The notes beneath the pieces are model-generated. The model was given only the letters and a program-made list of their open reading frames with translations, did no database searches and was not told the DNA's origin. A stretch of 60,554 nucleotides of DNA, filler included. It is 5 parts of 5 records of this genome, joined end to end, with 100 filler letters (N's around TTAATTAATTAA, not from the genome) between each part and the next. Parts side by side here need not be neighbours in the genome. Positions count along the whole stretch, not along the records: positions 39,993 to 52,862 come from SRR31156797_45604; 4 more parts are not named here. One strand, 5' to 3'. The position numbers and the translations under genes were made by a program. Below are positions 16,315 through 52,962 of the stretch, one piece after another. Position 1 is the first letter of the stretch. Every line of letters starts with the position of its first letter.

Positions 16315-16414
16315 NNNNNNNNNNNNNNNNNNNNNNNNNNNNNNNNNNNNNNNNNNNNTTAATTAATTAANNNNNNNNNNNNNNNNNNNNNNNNNNNNNN
16401 NNNNNNNNNNNNNN
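16315..16414. other. Artificial contig spacer
   Basis: N-run + TTAATTAATTAA (stops in all six frames) + N-run; composition and gene content change across it. Confidence 0.98.
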
Positions 16415-24100: not shown

Positions 24101-24364
24101 GCCAAGGTAGTATGGTCGTACAATGAAAAAGGCGGCAAGCGCTTCTTTGCGGAACAGGCATCCGGGGCACAACGGTTGGCAAACGGGCACACTCTCATCA
24201 GTAATGGCCCGGCAGGACGCATTCTCGAAGTTTCTGCCAATGCCAAACCCGTCTGGGAATACACGTATACCGGCTCCAACAGCACTTCAAGCCACAAAAT
24301 ATTCCGTGCCACACGAATTCCCCCTCAGCATCCAGGGCTAAAACGCCTCTCGATCAACAAGTAA
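21194..24364 (+). CDS. Secreted multidomain protein: right-handed beta-helix + Pro/Ala linker + EF-hand pair + arylsulfotransferase-like domain
   Basis: Signal peptide (AHA|G); GSSWATAF/IWVAEG and GGGMxN repeats; DMDGNGCITVNE and DLNGDNCLSKKE; QHHD, WEWHAWDH, WLHANSIDY, AQRLANGHTLI. Confidence 0.82.
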   Translation: MHKNRLIAAILCVLLFSATAHAGTLFVNEKVAQPGNGSSWATAFKTLTLALETAQSGDQIWVAEGMYTPTTTNDRSASFHLKSGVEVIGGFSGTETELKKRDVKKHPTILSGDIGQLGTPDDNVFHVVVGTDKAILDGFTITGGYSLNTAWTGGKKLTAQTLTAGPQPGFGAGILNYQAAPEIRNCTFQDNHALMGGAAYNMTATSDNPTAKPSASPKFSDCTFWQNSALAHGGGVVNEMQTAPLFVSCVFDSNIADISGGGMFNDFGAAPMLLNSIFRNNEAENGGGMANEGGSTPITYYSTFTGNRSLKNGPAIYQGVGAPNTTVLTKSVVWDNECECEDTRFFNGGTSVVRVQDSVIQNGYKGKSVFRANPGLDRKSETMLNVGYKTNGHRFRASKLEYRIKDIDRFEVIKNLPPYEAKYTASVDQKLLDTMNAPVATPAPQIAATPAPKPMAEPVITAPAPKAAPTPTPTPTPKSVTKAPATPAAKVAPAAMAPVAATPSATSKSTAPAQGKKAAPVAPQKEPENLALLAPTPSILDTHPTPAKPSRKPNIEALMLSMDMDGNGCITVNEATGEMQQKFWRMDLNGDNCLSKKEIARASGQTKRPQQPVAQAVAPTQTSTAALVPAKAPTPQTSKVASAPVIAPKQTTQAATDSNGYTLFAPMGSKDTLLVDMQGKTVKTWHGKDQSSGAVYLLNNGNLLRCVSPGKGEVRTPFIGKDVSGGIIQEVSPRGQIVWEYTYVSNKVRQHHDIAPLPNGNVLLLAWELKNESDIEAVGGSIRNHPDGKIWAEHIVEVRKSGPRSGYIVWEWHAWDHLIQNADQSAPNFANPVRLPQRIDINYNPSRRPEWLHANSIDYNPQLRQIVLSLRNTGEVWIIDHSTSTSQAASTTGGIMHRGGDILFRWGNPQAYGASGRPELVDQRDARWVKGAKPGKEHILIFNNGNRQTQRSDVLEILPEYYFKSTRLNAKVVWSYNEKGGKRFFAEQASGAQRLANGHTLISNGPAGRILEVSANAKPVWEYTYTGSNSTSSHKIFRATRIPPQHPGLKRLSINK
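22596..22625 (+). repeat. (CCCCGA)5 in-frame tandem repeat encoding Pro-Thr
   Basis: Five perfect hexamer copies read directly from the sequence. Confidence 0.9.
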
Positions 24365-28423: not shown

Positions 28424-28523
28424 NNNNNNNNNNNNNNNNNNNNNNNNNNNNNNNNNNNNNNNNNNNNTTAATTAATTAANNNNNNNNNNNNNNNNNNNNN
28501 NNNNNNNNNNNNNNNNNNNNNNN
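28424..28523. other. Artificial contig spacer
   Basis: N-run + TTAATTAATTAA + N-run. Confidence 0.98.
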
Positions 28524-29201: not shown

Positions 29202-29466
29202 GTGGATCCTTCTATAGAAATTGGTATCAGTATCAATTGAATGTTCTTTCAAAGACTTTTATAGCATATAGATTTCACGCTGATCATAAGTTTCTCTAGA
29301 TTTGTCTGTTGAAACTCATTAAATAACCGTTGGTAATATTCAGGATGGGAAATATTATATAGCTTATGGCTAGTCTGTATAGCGAAGGATACATAATAAA
29401 CCTTAATTATCTATTCTTACCTTTCATTTGTCACTTAGTGATTTCCAGAGGATTAAGAGGATTAAT

Positions 29467-30663
29467 ATGATTCGAAACATCAAAGTCGAACACCTGATTG
29501 AAACGCCGGTAGAAAAACAGCAGATCGAGCTTGTTGAGAGAAAGGGTGTAGGTCACCCTGATAGTATCTCTGATGGTCTTGCAGAGGCTGTAAGCCGTGC
29601 ATTGTGCAAGGAATATGTAGAAAAATGCGGTGTGGTTCTCCACCATAATACTGATGAGACTCAAATAGTGGCAGGTCGTTCCAATCCGCAATTCGGAGGC
29701 GGAGAGGTTACTCAGCCTATATATACCCTGCTTGTGGGAAGGGCAACCAAGGAGTTCGAAGGTGTGGAGATCCCTGCAGAATCCGTTGCTCTTAGGGCAG
29801 CAAGGGATTATATCAGGAACACTATCGTAGATATCGACCTTGAAAGCGATATCATAGTCGACTGTAAGCTTGGTACCGGTTCATCTGATCTCAGGGATGT
29901 TTTCCAGAGAGACAGGGTCCCTGTGGCAAACGACACATCCTTTGGTGTAGGTCATGCTCCTTTCTCAGAACTCGAACAGATCGTCCATGAGTCAGAGAGA
30001 CAGCTTATCACTGACCTCAAGAAGAAGATTCCAGGTATCGGCACTGATATCAAGGTCATGGGTCTGAGGGACAATGATGATATCAATCTTACAATATGCT
30101 GTGGTATGGTCGGCAGGCATGTGGATGATATGGACCACTACATCAATATCAAGGAAGATATGGCAGATTACGTGACTGATCTTGCTCTTAAGCGTACAGA
30201 CCGTAATGTAAAAGCTTTCGTCAATGCAGCTGACAATGAGAAATGCAATTCCGTGTTCCTGACTGTTACCGGAACATCTGCTGAGATGGGCGACGATGGT
30301 TCTGTTGGCAGAGGTAACCGTTGCAATGGTCTGATTACTCCTAACAGGCCAATGAGCATGGAAGCTACCAGCGGTAAGAATCCTATCAACCATATTGGTA
30401 AGATATACAACCTGCTCTCTACCCAGATGGCAAGAGATGTCGTAAAGGCTGTTCCAGAGGCCCAGGATGTTTATATCAAGCTTCTTTCACAGATCGGTCA
30501 GCCAATAGACCAGCCACTCGTTGCAAGTGCTCAGATCATCCCTGAAGATGGTGCGAACTTTGCTTCTGTCAGGGCTGAGGCAGAAGTTGTTATCGATGAC
30601 TGGCTTGCTGATATTACCAAGATAACCAAGATGGTTATCGCTGGCGAACTCGATACATTCTGA
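29467..30663 (+). CDS. mat: Archaeal S-adenosylmethionine synthetase
   Basis: [45 protein letters not shown]. Confidence 0.95.
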
Positions 30664-39892: not shown

Positions 39893-39992
39893 NNNNNNNN
39901 NNNNNNNNNNNNNNNNNNNNNNNNNNNNNNNNNNNNTTAATTAATTAANNNNNNNNNNNNNNNNNNNNNNNNNNNNNNNNNNNNNNNNNNNN
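39893..39992. other. Artificial contig spacer
   Basis: N-run + TTAATTAATTAA + N-run. Confidence 0.98.
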
Positions 39993-40000
39993 CTTAAAGA

Positions 40001-40021
40001 TAAGTAAGGTGTCCCCAGATT
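40001..40021. repeat. REP-like end motif, left copy
   Basis: TAAGTAAGGTGTCCCCAGATT; inverted partner at 40683-40704, sharing GGTGTCCCCAGA exactly. Confidence 0.7.
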
Positions 40022-40022
40022 T

Positions 40023-40099
40023 GGCACTCCACCAGACGCCTGACAGCCCTGCCGGTTTAGCGACGTCTGTCAAAGGCGCTGGTGAGCTTGTCGTTCTGG
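40023..40099 (+). mobile_element. Truncated integron attC-like site
   Basis: CTC(C)ACCAG(A)CGCC pairs with GGCGCTGGTGAG leaving two unpaired bases (G and T on the bottom strand); inner TGACAG/CTGTCA pairing; ends in an R'-like GTTCTGG. The R'' box is missing. Confidence 0.7.
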
Positions 40100-40109
40100 T
40101 TTTATAAAC

Positions 40110-40138
40110 TTGACAAAGCGTACGATATAACGTACATT
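40110..40138 (+). promoter_or_regulatory. sigma70 promoter overlapped by a YefM-type operator
   Basis: TTGACA-N17-TACATT; GTAC-N8-GTAC palindrome at 40120-40135. Confidence 0.8.
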
Positions 40139-40162
40139 ATGAAAAAATATTTGAGGTGCGAA

Positions 40163-40405
40163 ATGCCTACATTATCAGCGACCGAGGCAAGAACCAAACT
40201 ATACCGCCTTATCGATCAAGCATCTTTGTCGCATGAACCTATTGTTATCACAGGCAAACGGGGCAATGCGGTTCTAATATCTGAAGATGACTGGCGTTCA
40301 ATTCAAGAAACCCTTTATCTTTTGAACATTCCGGGTATGCGTGAGTCCATCCATAAAGGTTTAGCGACCCCTATAGAGGATTGTACAGAGGAAATTGACT
40401 GGTGA
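40163..40405 (+). CDS. yefM: Phd/YefM antitoxin
   Basis: SATEARTKLYRLID...EPIVIT...AVLISEDDW...QETLYLL. Confidence 0.93.
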   Translation: MPTLSATEARTKLYRLIDQASLSHEPIVITGKRGNAVLISEDDWRSIQETLYLLNIPGMRESIHKGLATPIEDCTEEIDW

Positions 40406-40665
40406 GTTGGAAAGTAGTTTTTACTAAACAAGCCAGAAAAGATGCGAAGAAATTAACTGCTTCAGGGCTCAAAGGAAAAGCTGAGGCAATAATTGAGATC
40501 CTGCGTGAGAATCCATCCCAAGCGCCCCCTGCATATGAAAAACTCGTGGGAGATTTGTCAGGCGCATATTCACGACGCATAAATATTCAACACAGAATTG
40601 TTTATCAAATCCTTGAAGATGAAAAGACTGTCAAAGTTGTTCGTATGTGGACACACTATGAATAG
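40402..40665 (+). CDS. yoeB: Txe/YoeB toxin
   Basis: EKLVGDLSGAYSRRINIQHRIVY...WTHYE; overlaps the antitoxin stop. Confidence 0.93.
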   Translation: MSWKVVFTKQARKDAKKLTASGLKGKAEAIIEILRENPSQAPPAYEKLVGDLSGAYSRRINIQHRIVYQILEDEKTVKVVRMWTHYE

Positions 40666-40682
40666 CTGAGCAGAACATCCGC

Positions 40683-40704
40683 AATTCTGGGGACACCATA
40701 TTTA
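40683..40704. repeat. REP-like end motif, right copy (inverted)
   Basis: AATTCTGGGGACACCATATTTA, 6 nt after an R''-like GCAGAAC (40670-40676). Confidence 0.7.
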
Positions 40705-40778
40705 ATTCGGTCGAGATTGGGGAGCTTGGGATGGACCAATGTTAAATGTTGTAATGTTTTGATTCTATATAATGGAAA

Positions 40779-40820
40779 TTGACGTTGGCCACTAGATGTA
40801 TTACTATTACCAGTATTACT
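40779..40820 (+). promoter_or_regulatory. sigma70 promoter with repeated GTATTACT operator-like motif
   Basis: TTGACG-N17-TACTAT; GTATTACT at 40798 and 40813; GGAGG RBS follows. Confidence 0.7.
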
Positions 40821-40839
40821 GCATACTGGAGGTCAAATC

Positions 40840-41064
40840 ATGAGAGTAACCACAAAAGGTCAAGTAACAATACCCCAACACATTCGCGAAAAATTAGGGA
40901 TTACCCCTGCAACAGAAGTCGATTTCATCGAGAAAGAAGGGCACGTCGTTCTAGTTAAATTGAAACGGAAAAAAGCCGCGACCCGCAAATTCGCAAAACT
41001 ACGCGGAGTTGCAGATGTCAAAATGACAACCGATGAGATTATGGCGTTAACGAGGGCGGATTGA
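40840..41064 (+). CDS. AbrB/MazE/SpoVT-family antitoxin (VapB-type)
   Basis: MRVTTKGQVTIPQHIREKLGI...MTTDEIMALTR. Confidence 0.92.
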   Translation: MRVTTKGQVTIPQHIREKLGITPATEVDFIEKEGHVVLVKLKRKKAATRKFAKLRGVADVKMTTDEIMALTRAD

Positions 41065-41471
41065 TGAAGGGACTTCTCGTTGACTCAAACGTCATTTTGG
41101 ATATTTTTCTTGACGATCCCAATTGGGCTGAATGGTCTGAATCAACGCTTGCAAATCATAGCATTTACACAACACTATATATTAACTCAATAGTGTACAC
41201 CGAAGTCTCAGTTGGCTTTGGCAGAATTGAAGCATTGGAGTCAGCCCTCCGGAAAGGGGGATTCCAGATGCTGGAAATCCCAAAGGAGGCACTGTTTTTG
41301 GCGGGTAAATCCTATCTTAAGTATAGAGAGAATAAAGGGATTAAGAGATCGCCGTTGCCAGATTTCCATATTGGTGCACAAGCTGCGGTTCTAGGCTTGG
41401 ATTTAATTACACGGGATGTGAACAGATACCAAACATATTTTCCAACCGTCAGGCTGATCCATCCGGAATGA
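41064..41471 (+). CDS. vapC: PIN-domain toxin
   Basis: LVDSNVILD, YTEVS, LPDFHIGAQA, LITRD acidic tetrad. Confidence 0.92.
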   Translation: MKGLLVDSNVILDIFLDDPNWAEWSESTLANHSIYTTLYINSIVYTEVSVGFGRIEALESALRKGGFQMLEIPKEALFLAGKSYLKYRENKGIKRSPLPDFHIGAQAAVLGLDLITRDVNRYQTYFPTVRLIHPE

Positions 41472-41481
41472 CCATAGACCC

Positions 41482-41570
41482 GATCATCGTCTCGTTTATG
41501 TGGATCTGAACATGGTACGCGCCGGAGTCGTGAAGCATCCTGTGGAGTGGCCTTATAGTGGGTACATGGG
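41482..41570 (+). pseudogene. Fragment of a REP-associated (RAYT / Y1 HUH) tyrosine transposase
   Basis: Manual translation from 41491: LVYVDLNMVRAGVVKHPVEWPYSGY, matching the catalytic-Tyr region YIxxNPVRAGxVxxPxxWxxSS. No start codon or HUH motif remains. Confidence 0.75.
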
Positions 41571-41623
41571 TGGTGCACTCTTTGAAGGCCTGATCATCAG
41601 CGAACCAAGGGATTGAAAAAAAT

Positions 41624-44600
41624 TCAGGAATCCTTTTTGGCCTCCTTGGCCCGGGTCTGGTCTTCGCGCAGCCAACTGGTCAAGAGATAAACAATATTCT
41701 TGTAAAGGGCGGGATACTCCTCAAGGATCTCCTGGAAGTCGTTACTGGTAATCATCAGCATTCGACATTCCTCCACGCATTTGGCGGTGGCGGAGCGGCC
41801 TTTCTTGTCCAGGACGGCCACTTCGCCGAAGCAGTCGGGAGGCCCGATGGTGACCAGAAGTTTGTCATTTTCATTGACGATATCCACCCTGCCTTCCAAT
41901 ATGAGATAGAGGGCATTGCCCGGGTCCCCCACCCTGAAAAGGACATGACCCGCCTCAAAACCGACCTCTTGCGCAATCTGGGCCATAATGATCATGTCCG
42001 TAATGGAAAACCCCTTGAAAAGCGAAACCTTTCTCAAAAAATGAATTTTTTCCAGTACCGGTATCATATCTTCAATCTCCTCCAAAACCGGCATGAACCG
42101 CTTTTGCATATCCGGCGGCACATCCAGTATGGCCGACACCTCCAGCCAATGGTTGCTTTGCATCAAAATCCGTTCATAGACGTCCTCGATGGTCAGGTGA
42201 CGACCGGGTAAATAATCCACATCCAAAAGGAATCCGTCCTCGAATGAAACCGCGTCCAGCAGTCGCAGAAATGCCGCGTGTTCATCCCTCTTGCCTTGAA
42301 CCAGGCTATCCAGATATTCAATGGATTTGCCTTTCACATGGTCTATATTCCCCGACGTGGTATGGGTAATCCGGTAGTAAGAATCAAATATTCCCTGATC
42401 AGGATAGAAGATATCCAGGATTTTAAAAACACACCACACCCGGTGTTCAATGTTCCGGGCCAGTTCGATCAACAGCAGGCTGTCCCGGTTCCACATTTTA
42501 ACCACCGAATAATAACGGCAGTATTCCGTACATAAATCAATCTCCTTGGGCAGATCTGCCCAGAGCGTGCCACAATCCAAATGCGATTCGGTTTTACGGA
42601 TCTTCCCCATAACATTCAGGGCTTCCTCCCTGATCCGGGGAACATTCAGATTTCCCAGCATATGGAGCAAAAAATCTATGGTTTCGGGCGATGGGATGGC
42701 CTGAAGGCTTCTCAGGCATTTCCGTAATTCAAAATGGGATTTGGAATCAATGATGGATGCGATCATTTTGGAGATAATGGGATAAGCGGCTTTCTCCAGA
42801 AAGGCCAGGTTCTCATTGAACCTTTCAAAATCGGTAATCCGGTTGAACCCCACCCTCTCCAGATATGCGCTGAACAGACGCGCATCCCCCAGCTTACCCA
42901 ACGCCCTCAATATAACGTCAAAGGCGCCTGCGGGGGGCAGATCAAAATGCGCCGCCACATCATTCTTCAGTTGCCGGAGGCCTAAACGGCCGGTCAGCCA
43001 GATCCCCGCAAGCACATTTTCCGTTGTGTCCGAATGGATGAGAGAAACCGTTTCATGAACCACCGACCGTTTTAATGCATCGTTTCCGCTTTTATGGGCA
43101 ATGGCCAGGATATAACGCCTGTAGACAATTGGGAGCACTGAATCCATCCACCGCAAAATGACGCTTTCGTGGGAGATGCCCCAGCGGGCAATGACCTTGA
43201 GACAGGCCAGTTTCAGGGCTTTATCGGTTTCCGCTTCAAATAAACCCTCCAAACGGGCAATCAAGGGCGCAATACCCCGAGATCCGATAACGGAAACGGC
43301 TTCCAGCCGAACGTCCCGGTCATGGTTATCCAGAAGTTCCAGCAAAATAAAGTTCAAATCCGATGAATAATTGTTGCCGATGATGTCAAGAATATAAAGG
43401 TACCCGTATCGATCGTCTGTTCCCGAAACCGCCTTCTCATACTGATCAATAATATATTTGACCTCCATCCTCACCAGCGAACTTTCAGCACCGGAAAGGG
43501 ACAAACGCCTCAAAACCGACGTTCTGAGGGAAGAGATGTAGTGCCCGGGGATTCGAGACACCACACCGATCATCACCATCAGGAATGCCATGATCAGAAA
43601 ACAGTACAGGGGCACCACATTCTGCTGGGGGGGCAACACCACAAAAAAGAGACAGATAAGGATTACCACCACAGGCTTGATCAGAAGCTTGGAATAGAGC
43701 CTCAGAGCGTTGGAGAGTCTTTCCGGAACTGAAAACATGAGCACCTGGTAGGCCGCATCAAAAATGATGCGCCTGATCAGTTCATTGACGCCGCACGCCA
43801 CAACGGTCCCCCAGAATAGAAAGTCTTCATAACCGGGACCGCGCATGAAATAAGCCCACAGGAGAAGTCCAAGGTTCGGGATCAAGAGGAAAGGATAGGA
43901 AAAAAGGATACGGCCGTTGAACCACAACCGTGTAAAGAAATAGATGAAAACAAGTTGAAACACTACTTGAAAAGAACTGATAAAGGCCTTGTAATCTCCT
44001 ATAAATTCCGTTTTTGGATCCGGTTGGTCAGAACCATGGAATATGACCGTTTCCATGGTTGAATCGACGGGAAATCTCTCATTTAGCTGGGTATCGAAAA
44101 GGACCTTGAAAAAGAGGTTAAATACGCCGATCAGGATGGTGAGGTAAATGATGGATCGCATGACCCGGTATTTTTTCTGGGACGTAAAGAGGGCGCCGAA
44201 TCCCACCCGCTCACCGGTTTCGTTTCTGAGTATGCGCGATCGATGAATGGAAAAAATGTAGGAAACAATCAGGTAGCTGACGCTGGAAATGACCATGGTC
44301 AAAATCAGAAACCCCAAAGGGTTATCGGCCGGGATCAAAGGGACCACGCATCTTCCCGACAGAAAGGCGGCGATTCCGCCGGAAAAAAGAAACAGGTTCT
44401 GAATCTTCCTTGATTCCCGAATATCAATACAGTAGTTGATCAGGGTCCAGGTCTGAACAATGATGAAATCATCCAGGATGTCATAAATAACAAAGTAAAA
44501 TGATGCCGGGAAAAACTTCTGCTGAAAACCGGGCAGGAACAGGGGCACCAGATAAAGTACCAGTGAGCATCCGATCAGAAAAAGGATATCCCTTTTGATT

Positions 44601-44896
44601 CGATACTCAAATGAAATCTTCGGGTTTAGGACATGGTACAGAAAATAGAAAAGAATAAAGCCCAAGCCCGCAAATCCATATAGGAAAAAATAGGGCCGTT
44701 GGTTGAACCCCTCCTGAAAGCCCGGGGTCATTTGAATGGCCGTCAGAAAGTTACTTTTGGTATAGGAAGTAATAACGGTGAAACATGAAATGTTAAAAAA
44801 GACAAACAGGCATAGCCCGATAATCAACTGAACATGATTGCGGTTGGCATCCGTTCGATTCCACATGGCGGTCGATTCGGTTCTTAAAAGAAGCAA
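41624..44896 (-). CDS. NTT/TLC-like nucleotide transporter fused to HEAT repeats and a C-terminal cNMP-binding domain
   Basis: About 12 TM N-terminal half (QTWTLIN...RESRK), HEAT-like VRLEAVSVIG/RALGKLGD, and LEKIHFLRKVSLF...GEVAVLD...RSATA. True start may be ATG 44866. Confidence 0.8.
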   Translation of the reverse strand: MLLLRTESTAMWNRTDANRNHVQLIIGLCLFVFFNISCFTVITSYTKSNFLTAIQMTPGFQEGFNQRPYFFLYGFAGLGFILFYFLYHVLNPKISFEYRIKRDILFLIGCSLVLYLVPLFLPGFQQKFFPASFYFVIYDILDDFIIVQTWTLINYCIDIRESRKIQNLFLFSGGIAAFLSGRCVVPLIPADNPLGFLILTMVISSVSYLIVSYIFSIHRSRILRNETGERVGFGALFTSQKKYRVMRSIIYLTILIGVFNLFFKVLFDTQLNERFPVDSTMETVIFHGSDQPDPKTEFIGDYKAFISSFQVVFQLVFIYFFTRLWFNGRILFSYPFLLIPNLGLLLWAYFMRGPGYEDFLFWGTVVACGVNELIRRIIFDAAYQVLMFSVPERLSNALRLYSKLLIKPVVVILICLFFVVLPPQQNVVPLYCFLIMAFLMVMIGVVSRIPGHYISSLRTSVLRRLSLSGAESSLVRMEVKYIIDQYEKAVSGTDDRYGYLYILDIIGNNYSSDLNFILLELLDNHDRDVRLEAVSVIGSRGIAPLIARLEGLFEAETDKALKLACLKVIARWGISHESVILRWMDSVLPIVYRRYILAIAHKSGNDALKRSVVHETVSLIHSDTTENVLAGIWLTGRLGLRQLKNDVAAHFDLPPAGAFDVILRALGKLGDARLFSAYLERVGFNRITDFERFNENLAFLEKAAYPIISKMIASIIDSKSHFELRKCLRSLQAIPSPETIDFLLHMLGNLNVPRIREEALNVMGKIRKTESHLDCGTLWADLPKEIDLCTEYCRYYSVVKMWNRDSLLLIELARNIEHRVWCVFKILDIFYPDQGIFDSYYRITHTTSGNIDHVKGKSIEYLDSLVQGKRDEHAAFLRLLDAVSFEDGFLLDVDYLPGRHLTIEDVYERILMQSNHWLEVSAILDVPPDMQKRFMPVLEEIEDMIPVLEKIHFLRKVSLFKGFSITDMIIMAQIAQEVGFEAGHVLFRVGDPGNALYLILEGRVDIVNENDKLLVTIGPPDCFGEVAVLDKKGRSATAKCVEECRMLMITSNDFQEILEEYPALYKNIVYLLTSWLREDQTRAKEAKKDS

Positions 44897-44960
44897 TTAG
44901 CGGTTAGCCGTTAGCTATTAGATAATGGTTAAGCTAATTGCTAAGAGCTAAAAGCTAACA
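44897..44960. repeat. Heptamer array forming an inverted repeat
   Basis: TTAGCGG TTAGCCG TTAGCTA TTAGATA, 8-nt spacer, GCTAATT GCTAAGA GCTAAAA GCTAACA. Confidence 0.85.
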
Positions 44961-44967
44961 GCAGAAT

Positions 44968-46629
44968 TCACTTTTTATCCAGCTTCAAGACCTTTCGGTT
45001 ATGATCGTAGGTGCTGCTGATGCGGCGCAACTCCCTCACAAAAGGGATGGGCATGCGGTTGTAAAACTGAATGGTCTCGGGCGTATGGTCTGCCTCGTAA
45101 AGGGGAATGTTTTCAAAGGTTTCACCCTTGTAGGCACTTTTTCTGACAAACCTGGACGTGGGCGCCCGGTCAAAAACAAGCCTTCCGTCCGCATCATAGC
45201 GGTAACCGTTCACATAAAGCCACTTATAAAAAGACTTTCTGTCAGCCGCGGCCCTCCTTTTGTACGGTTTTTTCCTTTTAAGGGAATAGGCGTGGAAGTA
45301 TTTAACGCCCATCACTTCGGGTTTTCCGTCCCCATCAATATCAAACACATCAAAATGGTTGGATTTATTTCGGTACGTCACCACCTTGGGCAGCAATTTC
45401 TCATCCGATGGGAGCATCTGCCGCAATTCGGAAATATGCCCGGCATTCACATGGGTACACCCGTGGGACATGGGGCCCCGGCTGAGCAACCATAACCGGG
45501 GGTACGGTTTCCCGGTGCGACTCTCCTTTGTATTCTCTTTCCATTCTTTGGGAATGAAAGTGTTTTTCCGTACATCATTATCAAACCACAGGGTGTGAAA
45601 CGAATTGTGCAGCGTTTTTCCCACGTGCATATAGGGAATCCAGGGGAGATATCCGTAGCAAACCTTGTCCGGTATGTGATCCACCACCTTGGTGCGCTGA
45701 TGTTCAATGAGGTTGCGCTTTCCGGGGCAGGGATAAAGGGGAATATTTTGGCCATCGTATTTGGCGAATTGATTGAGGGTTCCAACGGGATAAACGGCCG
45801 TGAATTCATAAAAATCGAGCATCTTCCCATTTAACGGGTAAATGCCGTTGGTGGCGGCTTTAAACAGGTTCACGGCAGCGCGGTAAACCGACTTCCAGGC
45901 CATTTCGCTCTTTAGATCCTCCTCGTAAATACCATAGAGGGTAATGGCATTTCGCAGTTGATCTTTCAATCGCCACGGTAATTCGGTGACCCATATGCGC
46001 GTGGGCAACATGTTGTTAATGAGGACCAGGCTCTCCTGGATCGAGGGCTCTTTGTGGAGAAATGGCGCCAGCTGACTTGACCATCGGCGCATTTGACCAT
46101 CAAAATCGATTTTAATATGGAAAACCCTTCCGGGGTTCAGCTTTTCAAGAATTTCAAGGCTGATTTTCCGGTACTCCGCCGGATCCATACGGCTTTTCCC
46201 GGCGGCCAGACTCAGGATGTTTTCTTTTGAAAGAATCCGGCTGAATTTTTCAAAACCCAAGTTCTGAGTCAGCTTGATCTTTGATTTTTTGATCAACTCT
46301 TCGTAGACCCTATATCTCAAAGCAAGATCCGGAAGATACGAATCAATGACCCGGTTTGAGAGGATCAGGGTAACGCGAACCTGGTTGCCGCGTCCCAGAT
46401 GGATGTGGATATTTTTGGGTTCCTGGCATCGCGGCGCGAATCCCGTATAGAATGACGGTTCTATGCGGTAATAAAATACCCCTTGGGGCTCGGTTTTCGC
46501 ATCATTCCGATCTCGGGATTGATTCTTCGCGTCTCCGGCGGCCTGAACGTTGAAGGCCGATACCAGGAATACGGCCGCAAGGATTGTTCTGAAAGCATAT
46601 AAAAGTCTTATATCGAATCGGTTTTTCAT
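44968..46629 (-). CDS. Exported basic protein with an L,D-transpeptidase-like SHGC motif
   Basis: Signal peptide (VQA|A); SRGPMSHGCTHV resembles the YkuD SHGCxR motif; the remainder is unrecognised. Confidence 0.6.
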   Translation of the reverse strand: MKNRFDIRLLYAFRTILAAVFLVSAFNVQAAGDAKNQSRDRNDAKTEPQGVFYYRIEPSFYTGFAPRCQEPKNIHIHLGRGNQVRVTLILSNRVIDSYLPDLALRYRVYEELIKKSKIKLTQNLGFEKFSRILSKENILSLAAGKSRMDPAEYRKISLEILEKLNPGRVFHIKIDFDGQMRRWSSQLAPFLHKEPSIQESLVLINNMLPTRIWVTELPWRLKDQLRNAITLYGIYEEDLKSEMAWKSVYRAAVNLFKAATNGIYPLNGKMLDFYEFTAVYPVGTLNQFAKYDGQNIPLYPCPGKRNLIEHQRTKVVDHIPDKVCYGYLPWIPYMHVGKTLHNSFHTLWFDNDVRKNTFIPKEWKENTKESRTGKPYPRLWLLSRGPMSHGCTHVNAGHISELRQMLPSDEKLLPKVVTYRNKSNHFDVFDIDGDGKPEVMGVKYFHAYSLKRKKPYKRRAAADRKSFYKWLYVNGYRYDADGRLVFDRAPTSRFVRKSAYKGETFENIPLYEADHTPETIQFYNRMPIPFVRELRRISSTYDHNRKVLKLDKK

Positions 46630-46663
46630 TAAATGGTTATCCTATGTTGTGTGGGGCAAATCA

Positions 46664-47959
46664 TCATTCTCCCGGACTTGCGCTCTCACGTTTTTTGTAT
46701 TCTCTGATCAGTAATGGAACAATGAGGATCCAAATGATAATCAACCCGATCACCATGTAATTGATCCGGAGGGCCGTGACCGCCATAACCGCCTGCATGC
46801 CGATGATAACCGCACCGATACCCCCTTTGGCAAAGCGGTATATGAACATGTCGATAACCGCCTTTCCCTTGTATTTTTCAATATAACTCAACGGGATGTA
46901 AAGGATTTCCTTGGCCGAACGGAAGATGGAATAGGAGAGGCTCTTGTTGGCCAGACGCGTACCGAACAAAACGCCCATGGTCGGCGCAAAGAAGAAGGCA
47001 AAAGATCCGGCGCCCATGATGGCCGGCACCAGTACCAACGACAGCAACAGCCCCAGGAAATGGAGCATGGGTGCACTGATCCCGAACTGGAGAACCAGTG
47101 AAATCACATTGGTTGCACCATAGAATCTGGCCAGGTACGCGGTCCTCAGATCCAGTTCGGTGACCTGGACTTCCAGCACCTGGTTGAACTGCAGCCCGAT
47201 GAGCGCCGTCACAAACTGGCTCAACATGAGCATGACGCAGATCAAAATCAAATATTTTGATTTCAACACCACGTCAAAGCCGCCCCAGATACTCCCTGTT
47301 CTCTCTTTTTCCGGAACATTTCCAGCCCCTTTTTTGCGGGCCCGGGCCAGTATCTCGCCCCCCTTCCGGTTGGCATATGTAAACAACCATACCCCCAGCA
47401 GCAGCGCCCCGCACCCCACGAATATGAGGTTTTTGGATCCCATAACGGACGCCAGTTCGGAGGTCAGGACACTGGCCACGATACCACCGATGGAACATCC
47501 CCCCGCCAGAAATCCATAGAGGATCTTGGCCCGCCTTTCAGAGAATGTGGTATCACAAAAAGTCCATAATTGCTCAATAAGGATAACCACATAGATGTCT
47601 TTTACAATGAAAGCCATCAGGGAAAACCCTCTGTTTTTGGCTGAAAAATAGAGATAGAACAGGAGAAAAAAAGCCACCGCCAGAAAATTGCTCACCGCAA
47701 AAAGTCCGGCGGGTCTGGCGGAAACCACGAATCTATTATAAACCCAGACCACCAACGCCGTGGCCAGGGCCGATATGATCCACACATGGGGCATTTTGGA
47801 AGCCCCCCATGATGACAGGAAGAGGGACTCACAAACCGGTCGGATAAAACTGTAGCTGAACAAGACCAGGAAAAAGCAGCCGAAAAGCGGCAGAAAAAGG
47901 CCTTTGTTTTCTCCGGCTGCCGCGAAAAAATTTTCAACCAATCGTTTTATGGGAGCCAT
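46664..47959 (-). CDS. NTT/TLC (Npt1/Npt2-like) MFS nucleotide transporter
   Basis: YSFIRPVCESLF, LWTF...RAKILYG, YSIFRSAKEILYIPL...KYKGKAVID.F.YRFAK; the last is an NTT-family hallmark. Confidence 0.88.
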   Translation of the reverse strand: MAPIKRLVENFFAAAGENKGLFLPLFGCFFLVLFSYSFIRPVCESLFLSSWGASKMPHVWIISALATALVVWVYNRFVVSARPAGLFAVSNFLAVAFFLLFYLYFSAKNRGFSLMAFIVKDIYVVILIEQLWTFCDTTFSERRAKILYGFLAGGCSIGGIVASVLTSELASVMGSKNLIFVGCGALLLGVWLFTYANRKGGEILARARKKGAGNVPEKERTGSIWGGFDVVLKSKYLILICVMLMLSQFVTALIGLQFNQVLEVQVTELDLRTAYLARFYGATNVISLVLQFGISAPMLHFLGLLLSLVLVPAIMGAGSFAFFFAPTMGVLFGTRLANKSLSYSIFRSAKEILYIPLSYIEKYKGKAVIDMFIYRFAKGGIGAVIIGMQAVMAVTALRINYMVIGLIIIWILIVPLLIREYKKRESASPGE

Positions 47960-47978
47960 TTTCAATCCTCAAAAATAA

Positions 47979-48010
47979 CCATCCCGCCATTGGGCAAAAT
48001 GGCGGGATGG
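47979..48010 (-). terminator. 13-bp hairpin with U-rich tail inside the putative operon
   Basis: CCATCCCGCCATT/AATGGCGGGATGG perfect stem; on the minus strand followed by TTATTTTT, then the GAGGA RBS of the NTT gene. Confidence 0.65.
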
Positions 48011-48079
48011 TCGGGAGAAAAATGCGCGGAGCGGCTATAAACTAAATTTTTTTCAAACAATATGGTTTCATGCAATGAA

Positions 48080-51000
48080 TCACTGCTGCCACTTGACTTT
48101 TGCATCCAGGGAAAAAGGTTCACCTTCTTTCTCTTTAACCCCCTCGTCCAGTGCTGCAAGGGCCGGCAGGTTCCTTAGGTCACTATTCCCCACAAAGGGT
48201 CGCGTTTGAAACAGATAGAGTTTTCCGCCCGTAAAACCATACTCAATATCCCAGGGCAACGGATCGCCGTCGGCACCCTTTTCAGGGGTAAATTCCCTCT
48301 TTATTTTCTCGGCGGACATCACCAGAGCGCTCAGTTCCTCATCCGTCAAAACCCGTTCATTACCGGTGGCGGGGACCATTCGGCTCCCCCCCTTCCCTTC
48401 AAGAATCAGCATCCGACGGGTGGGAGACTTGAACTGATTTAACAAAATGGTCTCGTTGGGGCTGTAGAGCAGGGTCTCGGCGGGTGATCCGTCCACCGTA
48501 CCGCCGACCCCCTCCGCCGTGGCAATGGTCATTTTGGCGGTATCCCCCGTGTCCACATCCGCCGTAATCAATACACCGGATTTCTCGGAAGGCACCGACT
48601 CCAGCACAACAATGGACGGAAACACCAGGTTCGGATCACTGATGACCGTCTGCCGCCATGAAAATGACCGGTAGGTAAAAGGCGAGGCCCAAACCCTTTT
48701 GACGCCTTTCAATACGTCTTGAAAGGTCATGAGATTGAAAATGGTCAGATTAAGTCCCGCCCCGTTAAAATTGGGCATGTCTTCCACATTGGTGTCGGAG
48801 CGTACAAAAACGCCGCGTAAACGGTCCCTTCCGGGCCCCGCGAAAATCCCCTGGGCCGCAATCTCTTCCCCTAGGGCCTTCACAAAGGACGGGTCCAGGT
48901 CGATTTTTCCGATGGAATACCGAATGACTTCCAACCTGGGACGTATCCATTGCGCCAGCTCCGCGGACGATATGTCGGGATCCTTTAACAAGCGGTTGAA
49001 AAAGGTATCATAGGTGCGCCTCACGAATTTATCCAGGGGCTCCCCTTCCCCGGCAATCCCCTTAAGTTTTTTGGGCAGTACCACGGTGGCTTTCTGAAAA
49101 TGGGCATTATAAATGCCGAAAGGGATGACCACCCCCCGCGCCACATTCTTTGGAAAATGGTATTTCAATTCTCCCAGGAAAGCCGCTTTGGGCCCGCATA
49201 CGCTTCCGGAATCCTTCCGTCTCAAATCGTCCAGGCCCAGGACCCGGGTTTCCTTGAGATTCAGCCGCTCGGCATCTATGGACAATTTACTCGATTGACC
49301 TTTAATCTCCGCGTCGGCGGTCCGTTTGATATTTTTTTCATATTCCGAAAGGATCAGTCTGTCCACCCGGTCCATCTTATCCGCTTCCTTAAGGATAATG
49401 CGACCCACCGGCGTAACGGCATAAAAGAGGGGCTTCCCCTTAACCGGGGGCAGACGTCTGTATAGCGCATCCAGGAAAACCGCATTGGGAACCCCAAGGG
49501 CCCGGGCCAGCAACTGCACGTGGGACACCACGTTCCCCTCATCCTTGGTGATAATCCCCGAGACGGGTTCCAGTTCGGCGTTGGTGGTCTCCAGGGCCAG
49601 GATATTATCACGGGTGTAACGCTGATCTTCATGGAAAAAAGCCAACGGTCCCAGGGCCAATCCCGGATTCAGGGCCCTGACCCCTTCCACGTAGGTCTTC
49701 CCCAGGATATGGTGCTTAAGGTCCAGTTTACTCAGCAGATGGCCGCGTAGGGATTTGACAATGTTGGCGTAGGCCATAAGGGGGGAAGAGCGGATGATAT
49801 CGTCATTGATCCACTGGACTTCCGGAATAAGATATACCCAAGGCTCCCACACTTCGGAAAATGCCGTTCGGATGGAAGCCTGGGCCCATTCCACGGCCAG
49901 ACCGGCGCGGTTGAGGGATCGATTTGCAATTCCCAGGGTCAAATTCTTGTTGTTGAGCAGTTTGTTCAAAGCCAGGATACCGGTTTCATATTCCCGATGG
50001 CTCATGAGCCCGGCCCCGTAACTGCCGGCAAGGGTATCCTTTAAAATACCGATGAGTTCCCGGACCGTCCAATCCCGATCCAATTCCATGAGCCGGTTGG
50101 TGGTCATAAGGATGAGTAAATTGGCGGACACATTCAGGTTGATGAGGGTTACGGCCTCCTCGGGCTTAATCTCCTTGGCCGCCACCGTTTCCCGGGACGC
50201 CACCACCAGATCCGCCAGATTGTGAAGGAGCCGTAAGGGGGCATTCTTGGGAATGTTCAATATATTCTTCACCAGGTTGCGGATGCCGGGTTCCGAAATA
50301 TCCGGCAGATACTCTTTCAACTGACTTTGATCCACATGGGTGAGGCTCCGGATCATTTTAATCAACCGTTCATATTTTTTAGCGTTTTTACGATCCCGGG
50401 GATGTTTTTTCTGAAAATCTTGGATGAGCGGCACCAACCCCGGAGAGAGGCGGTTGTGCACCAGATCTTTCACCGGCTTGAAGGGTTTGTAGTTGCGATA
50501 GATGACCAGGGAGAGGTTTCTGATATCGTTTACCAGGCTCAAATTGCATTTACAGAAAAAACGCCTCTGTAATTCATATTGAAGCAGGTAATTGTGGAAA
50601 TCCTTCCAGTCGGCGAGGGCATAGTATTTGGCAAAAAAGATGGGTGCGTATTTGACTTCAAACTCGGTGCCGGAGATGCCCCCGTAGGCCCGGGCCATGG
50701 TCAGTTTGCTTTCCGGGTGGGTTTCCATGTAATATTTTTCCAGGATAAACCCTTTCACCAGACGGTGATGGTCCGGATTTTCATCCCATAAAAATACCTC
50801 ATTTGAAAAAATATTCCCAACATAGACGCCGTTTCGGGCAAGGGTTTTACCGAATTTGTTTCGGTAAGCCGAACAGAAAAGCTGCCCCACCCCCTGCAAT
50901 TCCCGGCAGGGATTGGGACGGACGCGCATGTTTTTATCGGCCACCCGCGCCAGTTTACCGTTGGTGCAGGTGCAGGTATTCATGTCGAAAGGTCCCTTTC

Positions 51001-51127
51001 GCTTGCCCAGGATGGTCTTGTAGGCATTCTTTAATGATTTTTTTTCCTTTGGGGAAAGTTCAGCCCATCCGGGATCGCAAAAAAACAACGCACATAACGG
51101 TATCAGCACCCACCATAATTTTTTCAT
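48080..51127 (-). CDS. Signal-peptide-bearing PEP-synthase/PPDK-superfamily dikinase-like protein
   Basis: MKKLWWVLIPLCALFFCDPGWA|E; phospho-His swivel motif EGNVVSHVQLLARALGVPN; ATP-grasp motifs GPKAAFLGEL, VRSDTNVED...AGL, SEKSGV, DIEYG...FQTRP. Confidence 0.85.
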   Translation of the reverse strand: MKKLWWVLIPLCALFFCDPGWAELSPKEKKSLKNAYKTILGKRKGPFDMNTCTCTNGKLARVADKNMRVRPNPCRELQGVGQLFCSAYRNKFGKTLARNGVYVGNIFSNEVFLWDENPDHHRLVKGFILEKYYMETHPESKLTMARAYGGISGTEFEVKYAPIFFAKYYALADWKDFHNYLLQYELQRRFFCKCNLSLVNDIRNLSLVIYRNYKPFKPVKDLVHNRLSPGLVPLIQDFQKKHPRDRKNAKKYERLIKMIRSLTHVDQSQLKEYLPDISEPGIRNLVKNILNIPKNAPLRLLHNLADLVVASRETVAAKEIKPEEAVTLINLNVSANLLILMTTNRLMELDRDWTVRELIGILKDTLAGSYGAGLMSHREYETGILALNKLLNNKNLTLGIANRSLNRAGLAVEWAQASIRTAFSEVWEPWVYLIPEVQWINDDIIRSSPLMAYANIVKSLRGHLLSKLDLKHHILGKTYVEGVRALNPGLALGPLAFFHEDQRYTRDNILALETTNAELEPVSGIITKDEGNVVSHVQLLARALGVPNAVFLDALYRRLPPVKGKPLFYAVTPVGRIILKEADKMDRVDRLILSEYEKNIKRTADAEIKGQSSKLSIDAERLNLKETRVLGLDDLRRKDSGSVCGPKAAFLGELKYHFPKNVARGVVIPFGIYNAHFQKATVVLPKKLKGIAGEGEPLDKFVRRTYDTFFNRLLKDPDISSAELAQWIRPRLEVIRYSIGKIDLDPSFVKALGEEIAAQGIFAGPGRDRLRGVFVRSDTNVEDMPNFNGAGLNLTIFNLMTFQDVLKGVKRVWASPFTYRSFSWRQTVISDPNLVFPSIVVLESVPSEKSGVLITADVDTGDTAKMTIATAEGVGGTVDGSPAETLLYSPNETILLNQFKSPTRRMLILEGKGGSRMVPATGNERVLTDEELSALVMSAEKIKREFTPEKGADGDPLPWDIEYGFTGGKLYLFQTRPFVGNSDLRNLPALAALDEGVKEKEGEPFSLDAKVKWQQ

Positions 51128-51250
51128 TGATCACCCTTTTAAAAAAGATATACACTTTAATGAATCCGCCGATAAACGTGCGGATTATAGCATTGGCAAT
51201 ATTCCAATTGCAACCCCAACAAAGGCCCAAAAAAAATGACCTTCATCCCC

Positions 51251-52862
51251 ATGAAGAACCGGAAAACCGCCATAAGGATCGGGTTTCTACTGGCCATACT
51301 CCTCACTTTTTCATATGGGTACGGTGCCCCTCAAAAACATGAACCGTCAAAAACCTCACCGCTTCATCACCTCACAGTCCTGTATACCAACGACGTTCAC
51401 GGACATCCGGTCAAGTTTTCAAACCTCTCCGTGCCGGATGTGGGCGGCCTTCCCGCCCGGGCCACCCTCGTAAAGGAAATCAGAAGCGAAAACAAGAACG
51501 TGCTCCTTCTGGATGCGGGAGATCTTAACACCGGGCAAGCGGCATCCAATTTTTTCAAGGCAAAACCGGACATTCTCGGATATAACTTCATGGGATATGA
51601 CGCAATGGTTCTTGGAAACCACGAATTCGATAACCCCACCCATATCCTGAGGGAACAGATGGACCTGGCACGGTTTCCCTTCCTTTCCGCCAATGTGAAG
51701 ACCCGCAACGGTGATCATTTGGCGATCCCCTACATTATTAAACAATATAACGGCTTCAAGGTCGCCGTTTTCGGGCTCACCACAACCGAGGCGCAGATTA
51801 CCGCAAACCCGGACCATATCAAAGATCTTATTTTTGAAGATGAAATTGAAACGGCGAAAAAACTGGTGCCGTATCTCAGAAAACGGGCGGATGTGATCAT
51901 TGCCCTCACCCATCTGGGGATTTATGAAGGTTTGAATCGGGGCTCCAAACGGTTGGCCACCCGGGTCAGGGGAATCGATCTCATCGTCGACGGCAATACG
52001 GATACAAAACTGGAGATCCCCCTGATCATCAATTATCCCGGTTCCACCCACCGGACTTTGATCGTTCAGGCGTGGCACTGGGGGCTGGTTCTGGGAAGGA
52101 TCGATCTGTGGATCCGGGACAAAAGGATCGTTGATTTCCACATGGAATTGATCCCCATCAACCTGAAACGGATCGTCAGAAAACCCAACGGGGAAAAAAC
52201 CTTTCATATGGTGGGAAAACCCATAAAAGAAGATCCGGAACTCCTGGCATTGCTCCAACCTTACGCGGATAAAGTGGATCGATTCCTTTCCGAAACAATC
52301 GGATATTCCCAAGGGCCCTTTGGAAATGATGATGGAAGATACCGGGAGACGGCCCTGGGAGATCTGGTTTCCGACGCCATGCGTTGGTATTTAAGGCGTT
52401 TCAACCCTGATTTTGCCTTGACCAACAGCGGTGCCATCCGAGCCGGTCTTCCTGAAGGATCACTGGTCCGGGAATCCATCTACAACATCCTTCCATTTGA
52501 CAGTTCCCTGGTTTTTCTGAACTTGACGGGCGCCCAGGTTCAAGCCCTGTTTGACTACATGGGAACGGTTCAGCCGGGCGAAGGCGCCTTTCCACAGGTC
52601 TCGGACGGCATCCGTTTTACAATGGATCCAAAAAAGAAAATCTGCAAGGATATTCTCATCAACGGCAACCCCATTGATCATAAAAAAACATACGGAATTG
52701 TAACCAATTCCTACCTGGCAAAGGGAGGAGACGGTTATGTCGTATTTCTTCAAGCCGTCGACCCATTTGATTCATCCATTTTCCAAAGAGACGCCCTGAT
52801 CGCCTATATCAAACATTTGGGAGGGAATCTTGTACCGAAAATCAACAATAGGATTACGATCA
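51251..52862 (+). CDS. Exported bifunctional metallophosphatase/5'-nucleotidase (UshA family), stop beyond contig edge
   Basis: TNDVHG, DAGD, GNHEFD, LSANV, THLG; C-terminal NSGAIR, LPF, FPQVS, YLAKGGDGY. Confidence 0.9.
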
Positions 52863-52962
52863 NNNNNNNNNNNNNNNNNNNNNNNNNNNNNNNNNNNNNN
52901 NNNNNNTTAATTAATTAANNNNNNNNNNNNNNNNNNNNNNNNNNNNNNNNNNNNNNNNNNNN
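52863..52962. other. Artificial contig spacer
   Basis: N-run + TTAATTAATTAA + N-run. Confidence 0.98.

Follow-up and report, generated by a model that had tools for sequence, protein, structure and literature searches.

Textbooks describe the periplasm as a compartment without ATP, and the energy for processes in the envelope is accordingly taken to come from the cytoplasm or from stored bonds. Among the described systems closest to the locus reported here are the nucleotide carriers of the NTT family and the glucan dikinases of plastids. According to the accessible part of the work of Major, Embley and Williams 2017 (PMC5381601), the characterised NTTs import for the cell that owns them, and fusions of an NTT domain with HEAT repeats and a cyclic-nucleotide-binding domain (NTT-HEAT-cNBD) occur in free-living bacteria, where their function was left open. 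In potato GWD1, as described in the available portion of PMC13553574, a central all-alpha domain of 20 helices is accompanied by a His domain and by an ATP domain which is closest to that of rifampin phosphotransferase (RPH). In the present work, a DNA stretch of 60,554 nucleotides (the window) was analysed, in which a gene of a sediment-type bacterium for a predicted exported dikinase lies together with genes for two NTT-type carriers, a predicted exported protein with an SHGC motif and a 5′-nucleotidase.

The dikinase gene (48080..51127, minus strand) encodes a protein of 1015 aa. On the same strand it is followed by the genes for a short NTT/TLC carrier (46664..47965, 433 aa), the SHGC protein (44968..46629, 553 aa) and a long carrier (41624..44896, 1090 aa). 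The gaps between the four genes are, in the order of increasing position, 71, 34 and 114 bp. The UshA-like 5′-nucleotidase/UDP-sugar hydrolase is encoded on the plus strand (51236..52862), and 542 aa of it are present, the C-terminus being lost at the contig end. The ORF calls agree with an earlier note, made from the sequence alone, in the coordinates and strands of all five genes and in the divergent position of the nucleotidase gene; the intergenic region, estimated there at about 120 bp, measures 108 bp (51128..51235). We tentatively propose that these genes form a conserved module for phosphotransfer outside the cytoplasm, in which the carriers supply ATP and the dikinase phosphorylates an envelope substrate, a reading which we place somewhat short of probable. 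The module is without a described counterpart in the full texts searched, the NTT-HEAT-cNBD fusions themselves being already reported in the accessible part of PMC5381601. Searching of these texts returned no description of the gene set or of a link between an exported dikinase and NTTs, and the earlier note had likewise named no characterised pathway with these genes.

Conservation of the dikinase gene neighbourhood

At least 579 dikinase relatives were found among the matches listed (600 pattern matches on genome contigs), and the best 80 loci were analysed. These are the closest of the relatives listed, near-duplicate lineages included, and the counts given below are counts of loci, not of independent events; the variety of gene orders is the better argument for selection on the linkage. 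All stop-to-stop ORFs, after removal of shadow ORFs, were searched with profiles built on the proteins of the window and on neighbour clusters that recur. Calling of the longest ORFs was dropped, since long antisense ORFs in the G+C-rich loci had merged families. The loci were split at 40% identity to the window dikinase into clade A (59 loci) and clade B (21 loci, mostly from Gemmatimonadota and Acidobacteriota according to the record titles). Those loci whose flanks reach 8 kb or more on each side (22 in clade A, 7 in clade B) are referred to as well-flanked.

The SHGC gene is found beside the dikinase gene in 54 of the 59 clade-A loci and in all 22 well-flanked ones, while in clade B it occurs in 1/21 and 1/7 loci, respectively. 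Four of the five clade-A loci lacking it are nearly flankless on at least one side, and the flanks of the fifth, L030, measure just 3.7 and 5.4 kb. A pair of SHGC paralogues is present in many loci. The constant partner of the dikinase in the main clade is thus the SHGC protein and not the NTT. Members of the NTT family lie near the dikinase gene in 36 of the 80 loci and, within 10 kb, in 21 of the 29 well-flanked ones (clade A 28/59, well-flanked 16/22; clade B 8/21, well-flanked 5/7). Two NTT-type genes, often a short and a long one in tandem, are present in 19 loci. The neighbourhood survey proposed in the earlier note thus shows that NTT and SHGC partners recur, and its expectation that homologues of the dikinase co-occur with NTT genes is borne out. 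Proteins resembling class A beta-lactamases are encoded in 31/59 clade-A loci (well-flanked 12/22) and in 18/21 clade-B loci (well-flanked 5/7). The SxxK, SxN and K(S/T)G motifs are invariant in these neighbours, which have hydrophobic N-termini and give weak class A beta-lactamase matches only.

At least six gene orders were found, in Desulfobacterota, Myxococcota, Binatia, Alpha- and Gammaproteobacteria and Gemmatimonadota. With D for the dikinase, n for the short and N for the long NTT, S for SHGC, B and b for the two types of beta-lactamase-like proteins, c for a cNMP-binding protein, (-) for the opposite strand and a bar between divergently transcribed genes, the orders include the window type D-n-S-N as well as n(-)...S-D, D-S...n, n-N-B(-)∣D-S-S, B(-)∣D-S-S-N(-)-n(-), c(-)-N(-)∣D-b-B and D-b-n. 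Record or source names also place the module in the cultivable delta proteobacterium NaphS2, Desulfopila sp. IMCC35008 and Microbaculum sp. FT89. The recurrence of the gene set across many phyla suggests that these cells may feed ATP into the periplasm. Chance adjacency of the genes was considered and is ruled out by the variety of gene orders, the locus counts and the confinement of NTT genes to dikinase loci described below.

Some arrangements are specific to individual groups. In clade B (L057-L080, e.g. L073:12790-15282 and L060:12811-15073), 20 of the 21 loci have no SHGC gene, and two tandem beta-lactamase-like genes with SxxK/SxN/KTG motifs follow the dikinase gene. Upstream of the dikinase gene and divergent from it, clade-B loci have a long NTT gene, and a cNMP-binding protein is encoded there by a gene of its own. 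A sodium:dicarboxylate symporter (SDF)-type protein fused to a family-3 solute-binding domain is encoded in L013, L015, L017 (L017:15248-17629), L018, L033, L034 and L036. In these 7 loci its gene adjoins the dikinase-SHGC pair, and two of them belong to genomes without NTT.

Ten dikinase genomes were checked as a whole. In three of the five genomes G006-G010, namely G007, G009 and G010, all NTT-family matches of the genome lie inside the dikinase locus. G006 has three NTT-profile matches, one inside the dikinase locus and two elsewhere; a fourth NTT-type gene, that of the long carrier linked to the dikinase, was found solely with the window query. G008 has four NTT-family matches. The five further genomes (G001-G005) were picked for a dikinase locus showing no NTT or a broken one, and in G004 and in the unpublished genome G005 the carrier pair is present elsewhere in the genome. 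Altogether, an NTT is present in 8 of the 10 dikinase genomes versus 24 of 200 other genomes sampled from the phylum of G006. SHGC was found in none of these 200 genomes (0/200), and phylum-wide co-occurrence is therefore uninformative for the module. Linkage of the carriers to the module is strong, but the module also exists without them and they also exist without the module.

Encoded proteins and layout of the locus

The dikinase shows a match to PPDK_N (E 7.6e-27) at residues 726-982 and a weak match to the PEP-utilizers His domain at residues 518-550, and both domains were matched in 17 of 17 homologues (44-83% identity to the window protein), which were aligned with it. A predicted signal peptide (residues 1-22) is followed by a small beta domain, an all-alpha domain (about 91-470), a His-swivel domain (472-600) and an ATP-grasp domain (620-980). 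The alignment shows four invariant cysteines, C52, C54, C74 and C85, just past the signal peptide, and the nucleotide-binding motifs GPKAAxLGEL, FVRSDTNVED, FNGAGLNLT, WDIEYGF and LFQxRP are kept. Invariant residues include K647, R776, D778, E782, E962 and H536, the last within GNVVSHVQLLAR. The PF01326 ATP-grasp domain and the mobile phosphohistidine domain with its conserved catalytic His place the protein in the PPDK/PEP-utilising superfamily, and its motifs mark it as a putative His-swivel/ATP-grasp dikinase with intact nucleotide-binding and phosphohistidine sites. In the AF2 model (pLDDT 79, pTM 0.75) the all-alpha domain has about 21 helices, and its sole matches among solved structures are generic helical bundles. 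The assignment as a lipoprotein was rejected, C17 not being conserved.

The N-termini of the dikinase, the SHGC protein and the nucleotidase of the window resemble signal peptides. Export was predicted by a heuristic which requires an 11-residue window with a mean hydropathy of at least 1.9 within the first 70 residues and a K or R before it. It is passed by 99 of 114 full-length dikinase homologues and by 102 of 110 SHGC homologues, and 20 of the 21 clade-B dikinases, which were scored by the hydropathy part only, pass that criterion. Among the controls, 0/8 cytoplasmic proteins from the window and 2/2 exported proteins pass. Most of the dikinase failures (15 in total, 12 inspected) are still hydrophobic and have no K or R, suggesting mis-called starts. 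The character of the segment is conserved though its sequence is not, as is typical of signal peptides. Conservation of the signal, on which the earlier note had made its proposal depend, is thus seen in both dikinase clades and in the SHGC family. UshA and the class A beta-lactamase-like families are periplasmic types of protein.

The short carrier has about 11 predicted membrane helices and matches Pfam TLC (PF03219, E 1.6e-18) with 67.2 bits against a cut-off of 21. By this profile and its approximately 11 hydrophobic segments, close to the roughly 12 helices of the family, it belongs to TC 2.A.12. The long carrier consists of a divergent NTT-like membrane domain (residues about 1-450, about 10 predicted helices), HEAT repeats (HEAT_2, E 4.8e-8) and a C-terminal cyclic-nucleotide-binding domain (cNMP_binding, E 4.4e-20, residues 980-1061). 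The profile of its membrane domain aligns with the NTT-family profile over 297 columns (hhalign, probability 95.4%, E 1.8e-8). Of the NTT-HEAT-cNMP architecture assigned in the earlier note, the HEAT and cNMP parts were recovered directly, and the NTT part is linked to the family by this profile comparison and not by a TLC assignment in Pfam or NCBIfam. To our knowledge, all characterised members of the NTT family carry nucleotides or dinucleotides.

The product of the SHGC gene contains the motif SRGPMSHGCTHV and belongs to no Pfam or NCBIfam family. In an alignment of 23 sequences H310, Q311, R312, H318, H335, H341, H345, S388, G390, C391 and H393 are invariant and H389 nearly so. A word-indexed search returned 730 matches, all named hypothetical except for one UniRef entry with the name YkuD domain, and 291 representatives were found among 1.84 billion proteins at E up to 0.001. 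By sequence, the family is small and self-contained. Alignment with 14 true YkuD domains (PF03734), the L,D-transpeptidase type, is seen for the (S/T)HGC motif of the catalytic loop together with the helix that comes after it. Unlike YkuD, the SHGC protein has no His at the canonical distance upstream of the Cys, is about 550 aa long and has a large helical N-terminal half. The window protein shows no YkuD profile match; in other members of the family, sub-threshold Pfam YkuD matches were seen in 2/23 (best E 0.39) and 4/15 (best E 0.021) cases, the cut-off being 23.4 bits. In the ESM Atlas, YkuD clusters rank second and third (0.85). A comparison with true YkuD domains by hhalign gave a non-significant probability of 9% over 28 columns, and a PF03734 search of G001 found 21 YkuD genes, the SHGC gene not among them. 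The AF2 model has a pLDDT of 69 overall and below 50 over residues 300-402, which leaves the fold of the catalytic region unreliable. Foldseek and VIA-align searches with this model, weak as it is at 300-402, gave no informative match, nor did the sequence give anything meaningful against solved structures. Since the profile match is not significant and the model is unreliable, we describe the protein as a putative exported Cys/His enzyme with a YkuD-like loop and not as an L,D-transpeptidase. Complex prediction for the N-terminal half of the dikinase and the SHGC protein scored 0.00, which is uninformative for or against binding.

The nucleotidase matches the Pfam families Metallophos (E 1.8e-12) and 5_nucleotid_C (E 8.6e-33) and has a predicted N-terminal signal. 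It scores 342 bits (E 7.4e-102) with the NCBIfam UshA model NF007109, under the equivalog cut-off of 600. The 5′-nucleotidase identity and the divergent position given in the earlier note hold; general membership in the module does not, the gene being a lineage-specific add-on peripheral to the module. In L005:2953-6509 and L006:5585-9038, a second SHGC paralogue is located directly downstream of the gene for the UshA-like nucleotidase. The two genes overlap by 4 nt in L005 and apparently also in L006, which ties the nucleotidase to the module in the L005/L006 lineage. The contig of the window ends before the position where this second paralogue would fall.

The window consists of five contigs glued by N44-TTAATTAATTAA-N44 spacers (16315-16414, 28424-28523, 39893-39992 and 52863-52962) and is not one genomic run. 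The G+C content of the pieces spans 33% to 60%; it is about 58% for the first of them and only about 33% for the last one, and they may thus stem from more than one organism. All five genes sit inside one 12.9-kb piece (39993-52862). Because this piece stops at 52862, the nucleotidase gene ends there, and the genes past 52963 on a separate piece, among them those for a DUF819 protein and an S13 peptidase, are not its neighbours. A consensus scan of the divergent intergenic region gave a sigma-70-like site facing the dikinase gene (51213-51184; TTGCAA, 18 nt, TATAAT with TG), and the number of candidate sites in this region is not above that in shuffles. Between the dikinase and the short carrier genes the scan found a hairpin (47977..48012, minus strand) which has a 15-bp stem and a U tract and resembles a terminator or attenuator. 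Stem and U tract are kept in five of seven aligned close relatives (the window, L001, L003, L004 and L055), and the alignment of the seven shows no informative covariation. This hairpin could lower the expression of the downstream carrier and SHGC genes. A search of the contig piece against Rfam gave one chance-level match and nothing more. Just downstream of the operon are toxin-antitoxin genes, for Phd/YefM with YoeB/ParE and for a PIN-domain protein (40082-40665 and 41061-41471). Separate pieces carry the gene of an archaeal-type S-adenosylmethionine synthetase (29428-30663; PF01941, E 8e-180) and that of a 1056-aa protein with a beta-helix/DUF1565 N-terminal part and an arylsulfotransferase (ASST) domain (21194-24364), which adjoins DUF4197 and AsmA-family genes.

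Proposed pathway and alternative explanations

In the proposed pathway, the two carriers would, as the gene context suggests, bring cytoplasmic ATP into the periplasm and probably take AMP or ADP back in return, and the cytoplasmic HEAT-cNMP tail of the long carrier may gate the flux. The dikinase would move the beta-phosphate of ATP onto H536 with release of AMP and Pi. The phosphate would then be passed to an envelope substrate held by the all-alpha domain of the dikinase, as GWD does with starch. The putative Cys/His enzyme with the SHGC motif may act on the same substrate and, in other lineages, so may the class A beta-lactamase-like SxxK enzymes. The UshA-like nucleotidase would remove AMP in the lineage of the window. 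In most other lineages, predicted exported SxxK/SxN/KTG enzymes are encoded beside the dikinase, and this suggests a substrate of the cell-wall or peptide type. Because of the folds of these partners, a peptidoglycan-type or other D-amino-acid peptide structure appears most likely. The reverse reaction, periplasmic conversion of AMP to ATP, was also considered and is ruled out by inference: the dikinase has no PEP-type donor domain, and phosphoester products cannot drive this reaction.

Several findings weigh against this reading. The short carrier reaches only 40 bits (E 2.4e-10) with the NCBIfam NTP/NDP exchanger model TIGR00769, whose cut-off is 387, and neither Pfam nor NCBIfam assigns the membrane part of the long carrier to TLC. 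Both carriers are far from the assayed NTTs, and nucleotide cargo is therefore deduced from distant family membership. In G001 (Microbaculum sp. FT89, isolate assembly) and G003, a dikinase and SHGC are encoded and no NTT was found with Pfam TLC, the NTT profile, the long-form membrane domain of the window or the Binatia-type long form, all positive controls having worked. With two of ten dikinase genomes lacking an NTT, the carriers are not obligatory, and the 24 of 200 genomes that have an NTT and no SHGC show that NTTs have other roles. The NTT gene beside the dikinase gene in G002 contains an internal stop codon. In this locus (L012:8547-9596; G002:C27:66258-66740) the NTT is split into two overlapping frames and has an internal TAG, and it may be decaying in the lineage. 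The nucleotidase is encoded at 5 of the 80 loci, all from close relatives (5/59 in clade A, 0/21 in clade B), the near-duplicate lineages limit what the locus counts can carry, and the kinship of the SHGC protein to the L,D-transpeptidases is not established by sequence. The overall interpretation given in the earlier note is supported in part: the linkage and the predicted export signals stand, whereas the nucleotidase proved peripheral and the two genomes without NTT speak against it.

Part of this evidence would fit nucleotide salvage, in which the NTTs take up periplasmic nucleotides, the UshA-like enzyme trims the rest, and the dikinase and SHGC use another phosphoryl donor. Import into the owner cell is what the accessible part of PMC5381601 reports for characterised NTTs, and the absence of NTTs from G001 and G003, their presence without SHGC in 24/200 genomes and the adjacent nucleotidase in the window agree with it. 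We consider salvage unlikely, as it fails to explain the proximity to the dikinase, which persists in two dikinase clades (30-37% identity to the window enzyme) and in six or more gene orders, and the three genomes whose sole NTT genes sit in the dikinase locus, and would provide no ATP to a predicted exported enzyme whose ATP site is intact. Rather improbable, in our view, is that the carriers move a non-adenylate cargo of the same pathway, such as another nucleotide or cofactor, or the product that results from phosphorylation by the dikinase, so that the link reflects traffic of substrate or product and not energy. The very large distance of the carriers from assayed NTTs, expressed in the TIGR00769 score of the short carrier and the missing Pfam TLC match of the long one, leaves room for this, as does the SDF-type fusion transporter with its family-3 solute-binding domain beside SHGC in seven loci. 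However, all characterised members of the family are, as far as is known, carriers of nucleotides or dinucleotides, and the SDF-type transporter co-occurs with an NTT in L013 and L018 and is therefore no replacement for it.

The extracytoplasmic location itself could be questioned if the N-terminus of the dikinase were a membrane anchor or a mis-called start, leaving the enzyme at the cytoplasmic face with access to cytoplasmic ATP. The export call rests on a hydropathy heuristic and a reading of the alignment, which permits this explanation, and yet we regard it as very unlikely. The hydrophobic stretch comes after a basic n-region, an arrangement that predicts an N-in topology with the bulk of the protein outside, and a small-residue cleavage motif and the four invariant cysteines follow directly after the stretch. 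The hydrophobic feature is kept in 99/114 and 20/21 dikinases despite its unconserved sequence, and every enzyme partner of the dikinase also carries a predicted signal peptide. Returning to the proposed phosphotransfer module, its widest form would be that many free-living Gram-negative bacteria energise their periplasm by ATP export through NTTs, which cyclic nucleotide gates by way of a HEAT arm, an exported dikinase of GWD-like domain order phosphorylating the cell wall or a different envelope polymer and so preparing it for SHGC and SxxK enzymes. In this form the proposal is more doubtful, and we offer it as a possibility.

Comparison with described systems

The long carrier of the window has the same NTT-HEAT-cNBD architecture as the fusions in the accessible part of PMC5381601, where a separate adjacent cNBD gene, as seen here in clade-B loci, is also described. 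That part of the paper mentions neither a dikinase nor exported partners, whereas the carriers studied here are genomically coupled to genes for predicted exported enzymes. The module would provide, for the first time, a functional setting for those NTT and NTT-HEAT-cNBD carriers that free-living bacteria possess, whose role, from the portion of PMC5381601 available, has been open since 2017. It would also define two uncharacterised families of exported enzymes, the dikinase of about 1000 aa and the SHGC protein, and would point to a novel phosphorylation whose substrate is of the cell-wall type.

For the export of an enzyme from an ATP-dependent family there is a Gram-negative precedent in Lig E, according to the accessible part of bioRxiv 10.64898/2026.03.22.713542, and the fold of Lig E is unrelated to that of the window dikinase. 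From RPH and PEPS/PPDK the dikinase differs in the order of its domains. In RPH (PDB 5HV1) and in PEPS/PPDK the ATP domain comes first and the enzymes are cytoplasmic, while in the window dikinase the ATP domain is last and the protein is predicted to be exported. Unlike PEPS/PPDK and RPH, it also lacks both a PEP/pyruvate TIM-barrel domain and a rifampin-binding domain. Lig E differs in a further respect, as we know of no carrier linked to it.

The order of domains is that of the plastid enzymes GWD1 and PWD, in which an all-alpha acceptor-side domain of about 20 helices is followed by the phosphohistidine domain and then by the C-terminal ATP domain. The ATP domain is nearest to that of RPH both in GWD1, as given in the available portion of PMC13553574, and in the window dikinase. 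The chemistry may also be shared, with ATP, acceptor and H2O being converted into AMP, Pi and phospho-acceptor. Pfam searches at E up to 5 gave no match to the starch-binding modules CBM45 and CBM20 in the window dikinase and 17 homologues, and GWD1_pHisD (PF22973) is matched by one of the 17 homologues at a non-significant E of 0.2. No sequence link between the central domains of the dikinase and GWD was detectable, and the ESM Atlas lead to GWD has scores of 0.84 and 0.81 only. The dikinase further differs from GWD in being bacterial and predicted to be exported, in its four-cysteine N-domain and in its partners, which are SHGC and SxxK enzymes and not amylases. Without a CBM module or a significant GWD1_pHisD match, the dikinase therefore falls outside the GWD family, although it probably works in a GWD-like manner.

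If the proposed module operates as outlined, the periplasm is not ATP-free. A widespread exported ATP-grasp dikinase accompanied by nucleotide carriers would make the assumption of an ATP-free periplasm directly testable, and the pairing of NTT and glucan dikinase in plastids would gain a counterpart in the bacterial envelope.

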